Source: a virus
Taxonomy: Duplodnaviria; Heunggongvirae; Uroviricota; Caudoviricetes
DNA length: 64,000 bases
Direction: 5' to 3' (one strand)
Virus record (IMG/VR): IMGVR_UViG_3300020060_000009
Below the pieces are notes generated by a model. The model was not told the origin of the DNA, made no database searches, and worked only from the letters and a program-made list of their open reading frames with translations. A program made the translations under genes and the position numbers. Shown in pieces: positions 27,934 through 31,327 of this stretch (position 1 is its first letter; each line of letters starts with the position of its first letter).

Positions 27934-28006
27934 TGGCTCCCTCGCTAGGACTCGCACCCAGATAACAGCCTTCAAAGGGCTGCGTCCTACTTTAGACGAC
28001 GTGGGA
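27934..28006 (-). tRNA. tRNA-Gln (anticodon UUG)
   Basis: Anticodon stem CAGCC/GGCTG with loop CTTTGAA. T-arm CTGGG-TGCGAGT-CCTAG. CCA encoded. Confidence 0.6.
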
Positions 28007-28011
28007 ATATT

Positions 28012-28098
28012 TGGCGGTGACAGTAGGATTCGAACCTACGGGGCTTTTGGCCCACAGCTTTAGCAAAGCTGCTCGATAAACCACTCTGACATATCACC
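28012..28098 (-). tRNA. tRNA-Ser (anticodon GCU), type II
   Basis: T-loop GGTTCGAATCC, long variable arm, anticodon loop TTGCTAA. CCA encoded. Confidence 0.65.
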
Positions 28099-28103
28099 GT
28101 ATT

Positions 28104-28180
28104 TGGCTGGAAAGGTAGGGGTCGAACCTACGAATTTTCTGGTTCAGAGCCAGGTGCCTTGCCTACTTGGCCACTTTCCA
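28104..28180 (-). tRNA. tRNA-Gln (anticodon CUG)
   Basis: Anticodon loop CTCTGAA flanked by CTGG/CCAG. T-loop GGTTCGACCCC. CCA encoded. Confidence 0.6.
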
Positions 28181-28621
28181 TTATTTAAATAAGTTATTAG
28201 CGACTACTACAATAATTGATATTATCGCAACTGCTGCTGCAATCGCACCGTATATTCTACCTACTGTTAGCTGGGAGCCTTTAGCCTTACCATCAGATAT
28301 ATTAATTCTGTCTGTAAGATCGCTTAACTTGCCTTCTAATGCTTTATGCTGAACAGTATATTCCTGCCTTGGCATTAAAGTACTAGATTGGTCTGCTAGT
28401 TGAGCTCTGAACTCATTAACGCTCTCAAATCGTTTCTCAGTAGAAACTTCTGCTTTATTAATAGCTTCTTTTGTTGCAGCTAAAGCAGCAGCTACTGCTT
28501 TCTCTTGCGATACAAGCGCAGCATCTATAGCTTTTTGATTATCTTCAAACCGTTGAGCGACATACTCTTTTAGAGTATCTACTGTCCAACCACTTTCATT
28601 TTTTTGTGTTTCACCTGACAT
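28181..28621 (-). CDS. coiled-coil protein with C-terminal membrane anchor
   Basis: 146 aa with a long Ala/Glu/Lys-rich helical region, then GAIAAAVAIISIIVVV TM. Embedded in the tRNA array. Confidence 0.45.
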   Translation of the reverse strand: MSGETQKNESGWTVDTLKEYVAQRFEDNQKAIDAALVSQEKAVAAALAATKEAINKAEVSTEKRFESVNEFRAQLADQSSTLMPRQEYTVQHKALEGKLSDLTDRINISDGKAKGSQLTVGRIYGAIAAAVAIISIIVVVANNLFK

Positions 28622-28651
28622 ATATACTCTAAGTATATAGGAAAGCTAATT

Positions 28652-28730
28652 TGGGGTGTAGAACGAGAATCGGACTCGCATCTCCTCCTTCACAGGGAGG
28701 CGCTTGCAACCAGTAAGCTACCTACAACAT
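28652..28730 (-). tRNA. tRNA-His (anticodon GUG)
   Basis: Anticodon stem CCTCC/GGAGG with loop CTGTGAA. Extra 5' G(-1) opposite C73, typical of tRNA-His. T-loop TCCGATT. Confidence 0.55.
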
Positions 28731-28733
28731 ATA

Positions 28734-28826
28734 TGGCGGAGAGGGTGGGATTCGAACCCACGGTGGGAATTACCCCACAATAGTTTTCAAGACTATCCAG
28801 ATAAACCGCTCTTGCACCTATCCATA
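28734..28826 (-). tRNA. tRNA-Ser (anticodon UGA), type II
   Basis: T-arm GTGGGTTCGAATCCCAC, long variable arm, anticodon loop CTTGAAA. CCA encoded. Confidence 0.6.
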
Positions 28827-28845
28827 TTTGGTGTGCCAGGTGGGA

Positions 28846-29241
28846 CTAATAACCAGTTTTTAAGTAAATTTCTCTACGTTTTTCTGGTGTATAAGCCTTT
28901 CTTCGACACGCTGATTTTGCGTCTCGGCAAGGCTGGCAATGACAACCTCTGTTGTACATTCCAATCTGACCATGATCTGCTAATATTTTCCTTGATGCTG
29001 CGACATTACAAGGCAGGTGGCTATAACCTATATTCTCCAAGTCAAAAAATAATTTGATTGGGTCTTCGCTATCTAACCAAGGTTCCATATGCTCTATAGA
29101 AAATGTTTCTCTATCTAGTGGCTTTTTACACCTGTAGCATACATGACCAGCTTTAACGGCAAAGTCGAATAATAAGTCTTTTAACAGCCGACCATTAGCT
29201 GTGCTAGGATTCATTCCTAGCTGTTCTTTCTTTTTGTCCAT
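28846..29241 (-). CDS. HNH homing endonuclease
   Basis: CYRCKKP...HMEP...N...H motif with flanking Cys pairs (CHCQPC). Lies between tRNA genes. Confidence 0.65.
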   Translation of the reverse strand: MDKKKEQLGMNPSTANGRLLKDLLFDFAVKAGHVCYRCKKPLDRETFSIEHMEPWLDSEDPIKLFFDLENIGYSHLPCNVAASRKILADHGQIGMYNRGCHCQPCRDAKSACRRKAYTPEKRREIYLKTGY

Positions 29242-29319
29242 AACAATCCTCGGATGTTTATTTTGGTTATTAATTTAATTATAACCTTTTCCGATTCTTG
29301 TCAAGGAAATGGTGGCCTC

Positions 29320-29396
29320 AGATGGACTCGAACCATCAGTCCCGAAGGATGGGAGGTTTAAGCTCCCTGCGTGAACCGTTTCGCCATGAAGCCATA
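29320..29396 (-). tRNA. tRNA-Leu (anticodon UAA), type II
   Basis: Anticodon stem GGGAG/CTCCC with plus-strand loop gtttaag. Long variable arm. CCA encoded. Confidence 0.6.
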
Positions 29397-29483
29397 TGGT
29401 GGGTCGTGAGAGACTCGAACTCTCAAGCCCTTGCGGGCAATAGGTTCTAAACCTATCGTGTATACCATTCCACCAACAACCCG
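29397..29483 (-). tRNA. tRNA-Leu (anticodon UAG), type II
   Basis: Acceptor GGGTTGT/ACGACCC. Anticodon stem ATAGG/CCTAT with loop TTTAGAA. Variable arm GCCCGCAAGGGC. T-loop TTCGAGT. Confidence 0.6.
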
Positions 29484-29572
29484 TGTGGTGCGCTTAGCTG
29501 GACTCGAACCAGCATGAGCTCTCGCTCGGACGCTTTTGAAGCGCCTGGGTCTACCTCTTCCCCCATAAACAC
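29484..29572 (-). tRNA. tRNA-Leu (anticodon CAA), type II
   Basis: Anticodon stem GGCGC/GCGTC with loop TTCAAAA. Variable arm GAGCGAGAGCTC. D-loop AGGTAGAC. Confidence 0.55.
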
Positions 29573-29624
29573 ATGTTTGTTAAAGACTCTTGACCATTTT
29601 ACCTGGCATATTTTCTCTTTCTTT

Positions 29625-29698
29625 TGGAGCGCCATACTGGAATCTAACCAGTTTAAACCGCTTTGCAGGCGGACGCGTGGACATTCCGCCAATGACGC
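29625..29698 (-). tRNA. tRNA-Cys (anticodon GCA)
   Basis: Acceptor GCGTCAT/ATGGCGC. Anticodon loop CTGCAAA. T-loop TTAGATT. Confidence 0.6.
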
Positions 29699-29942: not shown

Positions 29943-29944
29943 TT

Positions 29945-30030
29945 TATTTGAACTTAGTCGAGATCGTCGGACTTGGACCGACATCGCCAGTCCCCGTGAC
30001 TGGTGTTCTTCTTAAACTATCTCTCGTTAT
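29945..30030 (-). tRNA. tRNA-like element, probable pseudo-tRNA
   Basis: T-arm-like GTCGG-TCCAAGT-CCGAC and a 5-bp anticodon-like stem CCAGT/ACTGG with loop CACGGGG (no U33). No encoded CCA, and two acceptor mismatches. Confidence 0.3.
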
Positions 30031-30031
30031 T

Positions 30032-30108
30032 TGGCTCCCAGTGTTGGAATCGAACCAACCGCCTTGACGTTAACAGCGTCCTGCACTACCGATGTGCTGA
30101 CTGGGAAT
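30032..30108 (-). tRNA. tRNA-Asn (anticodon GUU)
   Basis: Plus-strand T-arm gttggaatcgaaccaac and anticodon stem gacg/cgtc with loop ttaacag. Confidence 0.6.
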
Positions 30109-30204
30109 ATTTAGACACCCCGTGGAACTTGACATCCACATCTTCATCTATGTTACTTTGCTAGCGTTCACATAGGGTTGTTTTCTTTAAACTATGGGGC
30201 ATAT

Positions 30205-30282
30205 TTGGCGGACTGTACGAGACTCGGACTCGTTTCATCTCCGTGACAGGGAGACGTGTTACCCATATACTAACAATCCATA
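30205..30282 (-). tRNA. tRNA-Asp (anticodon GUC)
   Basis: Acceptor GGATTGT/ACAGTCC. Anticodon stem TCTCC/GGAGA with loop CTGTCAC. Confidence 0.6.
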
Positions 30283-30285
30283 TTT

Positions 30286-30362
30286 GGCAGGGAATGTAAG
30301 AATCTAACTCACGCCAAGAGGTTTGGAAGCTCTTGTGCTAACATTACACCAATCCCCTATAT
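30286..30362 (-). tRNA. tRNA-Trp (anticodon CCA)
   Basis: Anticodon loop TTCCAAA. T-loop GTTAGATTC. Acceptor AGGGGAT/ATTCCCT. A C-C mismatch closes the anticodon stem. Confidence 0.5.
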
Positions 30363-30363
30363 T

Positions 30364-30466
30364 TGGTGGAGGACTTTTCGTGGTATCCCCCGTTGAATGT
30401 GACATTTACAGTACACAAGGAACTGTAAACCGTTACTGTCTAGAACAGCACCAAAGTCCGAAGACT
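30364..30466 (-). ncRNA. tRNA-like structured RNA with 3' CCACCA
   Basis: 5' GGACTTT pairs with 3' AAAGTCC-T-CCACCA. Internal 8-bp hairpin TTTACAGT...ACTGTAAA with a 9-nt loop. About 100 nt, no canonical T-arm. Confidence 0.3.
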
Positions 30467-30829
30467 TTATATACATAACCTCGCAGACGGCTAGCTAATC
30501 CAACGTCTGTGACACATTGCAGCCATAGCCTGCTGTGCCTACATGTACATGACCACTCGCTACCCATCCCAGTTTCAGCACGATCAGGGTTTCACTCCCG
30601 CAACCGTCGTACATACTGGGCCAAAGCCTTGTCCGTCGTGTACTTGTATATCTATTATATCTAATTGTTAAATAAAAAGCGACCCTACATTTTTGTGGGT
30701 CGCTCGGAGATATTTTTGTTTTTCTATACTACAGTGAAAAACCTACAGCCCGAGCGCCACTAAAACTATCTGAATTATTCCAGAGTTGCGGTAGTTGATG
30801 CTGACACGATAAGTTCTTCATACTTTTAA

Positions 30830-30872
30830 TTATACACCATTATGAAAATAAACACAAGCGTTTTATTTAGTT
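30830..30872 (-). promoter_or_regulatory. conserved phage promoter on the minus strand driving tRNA array 1
   Basis: Reverse complement reads cgcTTGTGTttattttcataatggtgTATAATtaaaag (TTGTGT-N17-TATAAT), oriented towards the tRNA genes at 30466 down to 27934. Confidence 0.55.
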
Positions 30873-31070
30873 TTGTGCTTTTTCAGCTTCATCTGCTCCT
30901 GCTGATGTCTCTTCATTCGCGTAAACAGAACATAATAACGTGTAAAATAGAAGTATTTTTTCATCTGTTAAAAAGTAAAGTGCAATAGCAACAGGATAAT
31001 TCGCTCGCCAGAACCATTTTTTATAGAAGTGTTCTCTCTTCTGATATTTCTTATAAAATTTTCTAAACAT
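30867..31070 (-). CDS. small membrane protein (questionable)
   Basis: 67-aa ORF with one hydrophobic segment; its 3' end overlaps the promoter element. Confidence 0.25.
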   Translation of the reverse strand: MFRKFYKKYQKREHFYKKWFWRANYPVAIALYFLTDEKILLFYTLLCSVYANEETSAGADEAEKAQN

Positions 31071-31163
31071 GTTTATAGTATACTTGGTCGAGCCAGCGGG
31101 GGATGATCCCGTATCTCCATCTTGAGAGGATGGTGTCCTAACCGATTAGACGAAAGCTCGATA

Positions 31164-31250
31164 TGGTACTGAGGGAGGGATTCGAACCCCCGAAGTCCGA
31201 AGACATCTGGTTTACAGCCAGCTTACTTTAACCACTTGCATACCTCAGCA
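31164..31250 (-). tRNA. tRNA-Tyr (anticodon GUA), type II
   Basis: T-arm GGGGGTTCGAATCCCTCCC, long variable arm. Plus-strand anticodon stem ctgg/ccag with loop tttacag. Confidence 0.6.
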
Positions 31251-31253
31251 TAT

Positions 31254-31327
31254 TTGGTGAACCACGCGAGACTCGAACTCGCTTCTACTCCTTGAAGGGG
31301 AATCGACTTAACCCATGGTCGAGTGGT
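31254..31327 (-). tRNA. tRNA-Glu (anticodon UUC), position 33 = C
   Basis: Acceptor GGACCAC/GTGGTTC. Anticodon stem ATTCC/GGAGT with loop CCTTCAA. T-arm GCGAGTTCGAGTCTCGC. Confidence 0.5.

Follow-up and report, generated by a model that had tools for sequence, protein, structure and literature searches.

The tRNA array of the phage record IMGVR_UViG_3300020060_000009 (IMG/VR; Caudoviricetes) raises the question of how a phage decides when its own tRNA genes are to be transcribed. The window, that is the whole stretch of 64,000 nucleotides that was analysed, carries on its minus strand a dense cluster of tRNA genes at 27934-31329, here called array 1, and a second one further along, array 2. 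Why and when phages use tRNAs is debated, the candidate reasons being codon bias, host shut-off and escape from tRNA-cleaving defences. The original prediction for this locus described about 18 tRNA genes in array 1, with an HNH endonuclease and a membrane-protein gene among them, all transcribed from one conserved promoter at about 30830-30872. This is a tRNA array with mobile insertions, and we consider it probable that its units are headed by ribosome-mediated attenuators which sense the supply of tRNA.

No near relative of the window was found among cultured phages (INPHARED) by DNA or protein search, and the comparison therefore rests on metagenome contigs. These were gathered through the adjoining HIRAN-PD-(D/E)XK exonuclease gene (31543-32694), at 65-78% identity, which gave 15 contigs with 37 leaders, including a more distant subgroup with TTGACA promoters. 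The relatives are IMG/VR viral contigs of 84-110 kb (individual IMG/VR contigs are given L-numbers below), and the window itself has a phage setting, with a tape-measure-like protein, an amidase or endolysin, a tail protein and a DnaB-like helicase.

A pattern search for TTGTGT-N17-TATAAT gave four matches in the window, as compared to 0.06 expected, and three of them are situated upstream of tRNA units on the minus strand. Array 1 is two transcription units, the Glu/Tyr (YE) unit and the main (S1) unit, and array 2 is a third (S2); each opens with a sigma-70-type promoter (Table 1). The promoter that had been proposed for the array is real and conserved, at 30829-30857, but it does not drive the whole array: the first three tRNA genes, Glu-UUC, Tyr and Glu-CUC (31085-31329), lie upstream of it and have a copy of their own at 31441-31469. 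The short open reading frame (ORF) and the terminator behind each promoter had been overlooked. The order in each unit is promoter, leaderless ATG, an ORF of 14-30 codons, an intrinsic terminator and then the tRNA genes, with an RNA gene coming first in the S1 unit, and this promoter-leader-terminator layout is common to all 15 contigs. In the YE and S2 units the first tRNA begins about 5 nt past the U-tract of the terminator, and matches to the promoter pattern occur only upstream of the leaders. The leader ATG is found 6-7 nt past the -10 box in 36 of the 37 leaders, and the aligned promoters have a conserved ..AGTATGA.. directly after that box. This distance implies that the transcript must start at or beside the start codon, so that the mRNA is leaderless, and it leaves no room for a Shine-Dalgarno sequence.

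Promoters of the same class were also observed in other places. The tRNA-unit promoters are arranged back to back with divergent TTGTGT-class promoters for plus-strand protein genes, for example GCTTGTGT-N17-CATAAT at 31470-31542 (+), ahead of the exonuclease gene, which accounts for the inverted repeat ACACAAGC..GCTTGTGT. ACACAAGC itself, a box ahead of the -35, was considered as an operator and rejected, as it is in turn a -35, that of the divergent TTGTGT-class promoter for the plus-strand genes. The fourth TTGTGT-N17-TATAAT match, at 52478-52506 (+), has an ATG 7 nt past the -10 that opens a longer ORF resembling a membrane protein, and leaderless first genes may be a general habit of this phage. 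Just past the last tRNA of array 1 a TTGACA-N17-TATAAT promoter, perfect in 12 of 12 positions, was found at 27887-27915 (-). It is aimed into the plus-strand gene block, where it would give antisense or small-RNA transcripts.

The amino acids encoded by the leader ORFs correspond to the tRNA genes that follow them. The S1 leader, with the part ..LSCQHQLPQLWNNSDSF.., precedes the genes for Trp, Asp, Asn, Pro (two), Phe, Cys, Leu (three), Ser (two), His and Gln (two), and its residues 3-21 (NLSCQHQLPQLWNNSDSFS) are a run of 19 residues made up solely of amino acids of the downstream tRNAs, with 10 of the 10 present. The S2 leader consists mostly of I, T, G, V, M, R, A and K, and precedes the genes for Lys (two), Ile (two), Thr, Gly, Arg (two), Val, Met and Ala. 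Residues belonging to the unit's own set make up 22 of 29 in S1 (P=1.9e-4), 24 of 29 in S2 (P=1.4e-4) and 5 of 13 in YE (P=6.5e-3) in a binomial test with the amino-acid composition of the window's long ORFs as background, and the three P values multiply to about 2e-10. Over the 37 leaders the own-set fractions are 0.77 (S1), 0.87 (S2) and 0.36 (YE), as compared to backgrounds of 0.42, 0.48 and 0.10. All S1 leaders hold 10 of their 10 amino acids and have runs of 14-23 residues from the own set, all S2 leaders hold 8 of 8, and the Y/E run is kept in all 15 homologous YE leaders.

The correspondence is also seen at the level of codons. A unit's own leader holds a cognate codon for 94%, 93% and 97% of its tRNA species in the three classes, as compared to 8-24% in the same phage's other two leaders. 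Each isoacceptor has codons of its own in the leaders: Leu-UAA and Leu-UAG are matched by UUA and CUA, Ser-UGA and Ser-GCU by UCG or UCA and AGU, the Gln pair by CAG and CAA, the Arg pair by AGA and CGU or CGC, the Ile pair by AUA and AUU, and the Lys pair by AAA and AAG. Among the 13 homologous S1 leaders, those of the distant subgroup have a scrambled residue order (..NSLHQPQLSSWLPLCSQFNDD..; MKANSLHQPQLSSWLPLCSQFNDD..) but a retained composition, which speaks for selection on the codons and not on the peptide.

A hairpin with a U-tract follows 23-42 nt past the stop codon in 37 of 37 leaders. The stem sequences vary between the phages, so that the terminator stems covary among the relatives. 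In all three unit classes the 5' arm of the terminator can pair with a segment that lies at the stop codon or shortly ahead of it; this antiterminator segment begins 2-3 nt past the first stop base in S2 and 0-6 nt past the stop in YE, and occupies the last 5-10 codons in S1. Compared with 300 dinucleotide shuffles, the antiterminator pairing has a mean z of -3.3 in S1 (p<0.05 in 11 of 13), -2.9 in S2 (7 of 9) and -0.7 in YE (3 of 14), and for the window's own copies z is -2.9 (p=0.003) in S1 and -5.0 in S2. The MAFFT alignment of the S2 attenuators had register shifts, and therefore no structure-pair count was made on it and duplex energy tests were used for S2. In each of the three classes, pairing within a locus is more stable than pairing across loci (p=0.024, 3.4e-4 and 1.3e-4), and compensatory variants could be observed: GGGC/GCCC, GGUGCUUA/UAAGCACC, GCUAGG/CCUAGC, and CCCUAUUAU../..AUAAUAGGG as compared to UCCUAUC/GAUAGGA. 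When the footprint of the ribosome was masked during folding (ViennaRNA), the S2 terminator had a probability of 0.95 if the ribosome had reached the final codons or the stop and of 0.3-0.6 if it was stalled upstream, and the YE terminator fell to 0.02-0.37 for stalls at codons 5-8.

These elements probably work like the leaders of trp, his and pheST. With all listed tRNAs available, the ribosome would reach the stop codon and cover the antiterminator arm, the terminator would form, and the tRNA genes would be off. If any listed tRNA became scarce, through cleavage by a host anticodon nuclease, depletion or heavy demand, the ribosome would stall upstream, the antiterminator would form and the RNA polymerase would enter the array. 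The new phage tRNAs would end the stall and turn the unit off again, and since the product of the operon relieves the stall, such a circuit would be self-limiting. RNase P would cut the 5' ends of the tRNAs, and exonucleolytic trimming to the encoded CCA would free them from the tightly packed precursor. The sequence analysis shows the genes, promoters, ORFs and terminators, the codon-tRNA concordance and the covariation; that the leaders are translated, how stalling acts and what triggers it are inferred by analogy.

The trpL, hisL, pheL and pheM leaders are ribosome-mediated attenuators of amino-acid operons and of pheST. With leader-peptide attenuators of this kind (PMC1183508, PMC3082878) the window shares a short ORF between promoter and intrinsic terminator, codons cognate to the product of the operon, and a competing stem that is masked when the ribosome is at the stop. 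Unlike those systems, the units here are viral, regulate tRNA genes and not biosynthetic or synthetase genes, have no Shine-Dalgarno sequence before the leader, and name as many as ten amino acids in one leader, isoacceptors by codons of their own, where the others have a run of a single residue. The Shine-Dalgarno-led ORF and the 1:2 pause hairpin of trpL are missing, a 1:2-type hairpin being plausible only in YE, where GAGGAAGAA pairs with CUUCUUCUUU; this is a difference of implementation and not of logic. A preprint on mycobacteria describes leaderless poly-Cys short ORFs as Cys-responsive attenuators (bioRxiv 10.1101/834739). As described there, they are also leaderless and control downstream genes by a codon content that senses the supply of aminoacyl-tRNA, but they are cellular, respond to a single amino acid and control protein genes of their operon. 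The literature that was covered contains leader attenuators of amino-acid operons, of the pheST type, of resistance genes and of the leaderless poly-Cys type, and none for tRNA genes or phage tRNA arrays, a result which is provisional since the coverage was incomplete.

Several observations weigh against attenuation. The S1 terminator is only partly lost in equilibrium folding, to 0.78, with the bottom base pairs gone, and D, S and F, the final menu codons of the S1 leader (codons 18-20), are so near the antiterminator arm that a stall at them would leave the arm covered by the ribosome. For YE the antiterminator is a short one, in most phages GGGC/GCCC, and it beats the shuffles in only 3 of 14 leaders. 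The S2 leaders have a fixed C-terminus, ..IRGGKAK(Q/L), which may point to a constraint other than composition. Shared descent of the 15 contigs inflates the pooled statistics, and no leader of the menu type was found at unrelated loci, either in the 7 tRNA clusters scanned or in the inspected regions of phage T5. Transcripts could also enter the array by other ways: a TATAAT at 30653-30658 (-), after the S1 terminator and before the structured RNA, is present in 10 of 13 phages with a poor -35 and could be a second, weak promoter independent of the attenuator, or a pause element, and the promoter of the HNH cassette could feed the distal tRNAs independently. Finally, it is assumed that leaderless ORFs of this kind are translated in the host.

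A promoter followed by a short transcript, a terminator and then genes is also the layout of lambda PR'-tR'. The terminators might thus be overridden by a protein, a Q/N-like antiterminator as in lambda or a modified polymerase, that serves as a timing switch, and the short ORFs would be incidental. This would suit a layout conserved in 37 of 37 cases and the weak antiterminator stem of YE, but we find it unlikely, as it leaves unexplained why the cognate codons are at 93-97% in the own leader and at 8-24% in the others, why the composition survives when the order is scrambled, and why changes around the stop codon go together with changes in the terminator arm. Nor was an antiterminator protein identified, though no systematic search for one was made. 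The correspondence between leaders and tRNAs could, on the other hand, come from shared ancestry in an ordinary array that senses nothing, with the ORFs being small proteins or nothing at all and the hairpins ending or insulating transcripts. All 15 contigs are indeed one phage lineage, the S2 leaders resemble small hydrophobic peptides with a conserved C-terminus, and T5 runs a similar array without such leaders. Against this stand the product of the binomial P values in the window and the fact that three different leaders fit three different tRNA sets, down to isoacceptors listed at codon level; besides, a terminator placed directly before tRNA genes would silence them unless it were conditional. 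We regard an array without sensing as quite unlikely.

The alternative terminator and antiterminator folds, and the conserved structured RNA between the S1 terminator and the tRNA genes, could further suggest that uncharged tRNA is sensed directly, in the manner of a T-box, by the leader RNA or by the structured RNA, with no translation involved. The searches gave no T-box (RF00230) or other Rfam match (E<=1 or E<=10). A T-box responds to a single tRNA where ten are listed here, the structured RNA is missing from the YE and S2 units, and the reading frame and the position of the stop codon are conserved, all of which makes this very improbable.

Returning to attenuation, we lean towards the wider view that leaderless codon-menu peptides switch phage tRNA arrays on upon a shortage of any of up to ten tRNAs, in a self-limiting, demand-driven replacement that plausibly counters host anticodon nucleases, and that the structured RNA is a new, widespread phage RNA motif filling tRNA-sized slots. 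If this is true, no attenuator known before would control tRNA genes or sense many tRNAs at a time, and attenuation would be extended to tRNA genes as targets, to an 'any of N' logic and to leaderless viral transcripts. Such a sensor would also make the question of when phages need their tRNAs directly testable, since a fusion of a leader to a reporter would show which tRNA species is limiting, and it could serve as a compact multi-tRNA sensor for synthetic biology.

The structured RNA, about 280 nt long, is kept in 13 of the 13 relatives that have this region. It consists of a 5' core motif (30545-30643) and a 3' hairpin (30368-30391) followed by ACCA. The core has a closing stem, GGAC(A/G)AGG, a small GCU/AGC helix, a variable hairpin and (G/A)UGGGU(A/G)GCGAG(U/C)GG. 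Its covariation score is 0.474 as compared to 0.165 in shuffles (0 of 500 reached it) and at most 0.074 when the partners were slid, with 92% of the cells paired, and the full-length fold has compensatory changes in 33 of 56 pairs. The folding energy of the single sequence is unimpressive (z=-1.2), and the structure is visible by comparative analysis only. No relevant Rfam match was obtained at E<=10 on 30355-30870, and none on the compact copies in other phages, the families considered being RNase P, tmRNA, 6S, YrlA, GOLLD/ROOL and self-cleaving ribozymes, and searches of the literature with the motif strings gave chance primer matches only.

The core was found in at least 65 other IMG/VR contigs with a G+C content of 28-70%. 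In about half of them it lies among tRNA genes as a cassette the size of a tRNA, and a tRNA begins 19-37 nt past the motif; elsewhere it precedes unrelated ORFs. A role as cis-regulator of one type of gene was rejected, as the ORFs downstream of it in GC-rich phages share no family. The gap it occupies in the window (30360-30660) was considered as a tmRNA, the ..CCACCA end being suggestive, which was rejected since the tmRNA of the window is at 24493-24845, and as a coding ORF (MGSEWS.., 30433-30567), rejected for frame-breaking indels between the relatives. YrlA (RF02553; PMC4201824) is likewise of modular build, lies close to RNA-repair genes and has a terminal stem and internal loops that are conserved, and its 5' motif GNCGAAN0-1G loosely resembles GACGGACAAG in the array RNA; the Rfam YrlA model matches no copy, and a Y RNA/YrlA identity was rejected. 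RNase P RNA was also rejected, since it was found only in L073 and L074 and elsewhere in those contigs. With its link to phage tRNA arrays the motif is a new candidate for an RNA family, and a processing element, a protein-binding module and a ribozyme are its candidate functions.

Two side observations concern these RNAs. A subtype of the motif, recognised by CAAC...GGUUGACCAG at the closing stem, occurs in IMG/VR contigs L160-L210, for example L164 at 12995 (-) and L163 at 348 (-), placed between tRNA genes of unrelated AT-rich phages, some contigs being up to 290 kb. The RNase P RNAs of L073 (17587-17828, -) and L074 (19089-19308, -) are shortened, of bacterial class A, and lie in the second tRNA array; they score 145 and 117 bits (gathering score 100), and there is none in the window.

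Table 1. Features of arrays 1 and 2, listed in the direction of transcription. Positions are those of the window and all features are on the minus strand; tRNA genes are from ARAGORN and Rfam.
Feature	Position	Remarks
Promoter, YE unit	31441-31469	TTGTGT-N17-TATAAT; kept in relatives
YE leader ORF, MINSNTYYEEESNL-stop	31389-31433	ATG 7 nt past -10; ahead of Glu-UUC, Tyr, Glu-CUC
YE competing stem, CCUAU..GGGC	31383-31395	pairs with GCCCAUAGG, 31347-31355
YE terminator, AGTCGCC-CATA-GGCGATT and U-tract	31335-31359	tRNA-Glu starts 5 nt past U-tract
tRNA-Glu(UUC)	31255-31329	
tRNA-Tyr(GUA)	31164-31249	
tRNA-Glu(CUC)	31085-31160	
67-aa ORF, doubtful gene	30867-31070	in a stretch of about 225 nt that relatives lack
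Promoter, S1 unit	30829-30857	TTGTGT-N17-TATAAT; seen in the original prediction; kept in relatives
S1 leader ORF, MKNLSCQHQLPQLWNNSDSFSGARAVGFSL-stop	30729-30821	leaderless; main unit
S1 proposed attenuator switch	30677-30758	arm GGCGCUCGG, 30750-30758 (codons 22-24), pairs with CCGAGCG, 30701-30707
S1 terminator hairpin and U-tract	30677-30705	base overlapped by CCGAGCG
Conserved structured non-coding RNA, about 280 nt	30364-30646	between S1 terminator and tRNA-Trp
tRNA-Trp	30285-30358	
tRNA-Asp	30206-30279	
tRNA-like filler	30107-30205	decayed-tRNA look by eye; absent from nearest relative L001
tRNA-Asn	30032-30106	
tRNA-Pro(CGG)	29957-30026	marginal; without CCA
tRNA-Pro(UGG)	29865-29939	
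tRNA-Phe	29782-29858	
tRNA-like filler	29699-29781	decayed-tRNA look by eye; absent from nearest relative L001
tRNA-Cys	29625-29698	
tRNA-Leu(CAA)	29486-29572	
tRNA-Leu(UAG)	29397-29482	
tRNA-Leu(UAA)	29310-29393	
HNH endonuclease cassette	28846-29304	ORF 28846-29241; own promoter TTGACA-N15-TATAAT, 29278-29304
tRNA-Ser(UGA)	28734-28823	
tRNA-His	28652-28727	
146-aa protein, accessory gene	28181-28621	C-terminal hydrophobic anchor by eye
tRNA-Gln(CUG)	28104-28180	
tRNA-Ser(GCU)	28012-28098	
tRNA-Gln(UUG)	27934-28006	
Promoter, S2 unit	41356-41384	TTGTGT-N17-TATAAT; array 2
S2 leader ORF, MSERIAVMTKRTTPIVQATAMVIRGGKAKL-stop	41257-41349	array 2; tRNA-Lys(UUU) starts at 41192
S2 antiterminator	41244-41256	pairs with 41218-41230
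S2 terminator	41202-41221	

ARAGORN with default settings found 16 minus-strand tRNAs within 27934-31329 (Gln-UUG, Ser-GCU, Gln-CUG, His, Ser-UGA, Leu-UAA, Leu-UAG, Leu-CAA, Cys, Phe, Pro-UGG, Asn, Asp, Glu-CUC, Tyr and Glu-UUC). Rfam added one at 30288-30358 with 50.8 bits, which is Trp-CCA with ARAGORN at 95% thresholds, and at the same thresholds a marginal Pro-CGG appears at 29957-30026. Array 1 thus has 17 solid tRNA genes and 1 marginal one, all on the minus strand, Rfam giving 17 at or above the gathering score and relaxed ARAGORN 18, and the number of about 18 that had been folded by eye holds. None of the anticodons listed at that time was wrong, although a second Glu and a second Pro had been left out. 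The CCAAAT(A/T) spacer said to follow nearly all the genes does exist, but this was an overstatement, as the exact motif follows 8 of 18 genes and the others have CCAUAU, CCAAAAU, CCAAGUA, CCACAC and similar. The motif is the encoded CCA, present in 17 of the 18 genes, and an A/U spacer of 3-5 nt. At least 77% of the phage's own codons can be read by phage tRNAs, which makes this a near-complete decoding set and not a patch for a few rare codons. A host search through the genome collection gave unrelated HIRAN-domain matches only. An apparent tRNA-SeC(UCA) in the relatives was considered as an opal suppressor and rejected, as these are mis-registered Glu-UUC genes. In array 2 a tRNA-like gene at 39355-39429 (-) lacks an encoded CCA and has an anticodon loop of 6 nt (AUUUUA); ARAGORN gave it no assignment ('???'), and genes like it occur in the relatives.

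The HNH endonuclease proposed at 28846-29241 matches PHROG 23251 'HNH endonuclease' over its full length (E=6e-39), and CxxC..IEH..N..SH..CN is visible by eye, but there is no Pfam HNH match even at E<=10. Its homologues, 50-58% identical, are scattered over phages of Pseudomonas, Salmonella, Pectobacterium and Xanthomonas. Among the relatives it is sporadic: only L001 has a homologue, at two other sites, and the junction between tRNA-Leu(UAA) and tRNA-Ser(UGA) is empty. Other junctions of the relatives' arrays are occupied by a second type of HNH gene, GIY-YIG or EndoVII, and L068 has a compact array without any endonuclease. The array endonucleases appear to be mobile invaders, in the fashion of T5, and a homing function is predicted for the HNH protein. 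The coiled-coil membrane protein that had been proposed at 28181-28621 belongs to a real conserved family with 703 homologues, and a hydrophobic C-terminal stretch can be seen by eye; there is no Pfam, PHROG or NCBIfam match. It is missing from the array of every relative, and a homologue is found among small early-type genes of another phage. The 67-aa ORF has no Pfam, PHROG or NCBIfam match and no homologue in any relative.

The comparison with a T5-type tRNA region invaded by mobile genes is borne out by the scattered HNH homologues, by the variable sites in the relatives and by the same mixture in T5 itself. The T5 tRNA region (NC_005859, ~28-41 kb) is a one-strand cluster of about 25 tRNA genes with several promoters, interspersed with the HNH genes hegA-F, small ORFs, and tRNA-like and other stable RNAs. 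Unlike the window, it has no leaderless menu ORF and terminator between promoter and tRNAs in the regions inspected (P14a, P13b and P15b) and no conserved RNA motif, and the two share no sequence relationship. The T5 analogy is apt, and the array alone would be ordinary; the novelty, as we read it, would be the codon-menu attenuator before each tRNA unit.

The window also holds a kit for tRNA repair and translation rescue, with a CCA-adding enzyme, RlaP, the peptidyl-tRNA hydrolase Pth2, the polynucleotide kinase-phosphatase Pnkp and an RNA ligase at 1312-2319, 2623-3312, 7935-8483, 9346-10248 and 10255-11538 (all -). The tmRNA at 24493-24845 (-) was missed by ARAGORN but matches Rfam RF00023 with 86 bits, and a syntenic copy is present in all relatives. 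Evidently the phage has been selected to cope with damaged tRNAs and stalled ribosomes. The kit and the tmRNA fit a link to anticodon nucleases but do not prove it. Together with leaders that resemble sensors of tRNA supply, they give some indirect backing to the original suggestion that the phage tRNAs may stand in for host tRNAs cleaved by defence nucleases. In T4, Pnk/Rnl1 repairs the tRNA-Lys that is cut by PrrC. This is likewise a phage answer to the loss of tRNA, and the window has the corresponding Pnkp and RNA ligase, but T4 mends the tRNA of the host, whereas the mechanism proposed here would replace tRNA on demand. Adjoining the RNA-repair genes is a 281-aa protein (8538-9383, -) with only the N-terminal domain of S-adenosylmethionine synthetase (PF00438, E=4e-11).

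Array 2 has inserted genes as well. A second, unrelated HNH gene is situated at 39800-40105 (-), with a promoter text (..AAAGGTTATAATTAAAT..) nearly the same as that of the HNH gene in array 1. A small Cys-rich ORF at 38960-39177 (-) is, unlike the endonucleases, 56-73% conserved in four relatives.

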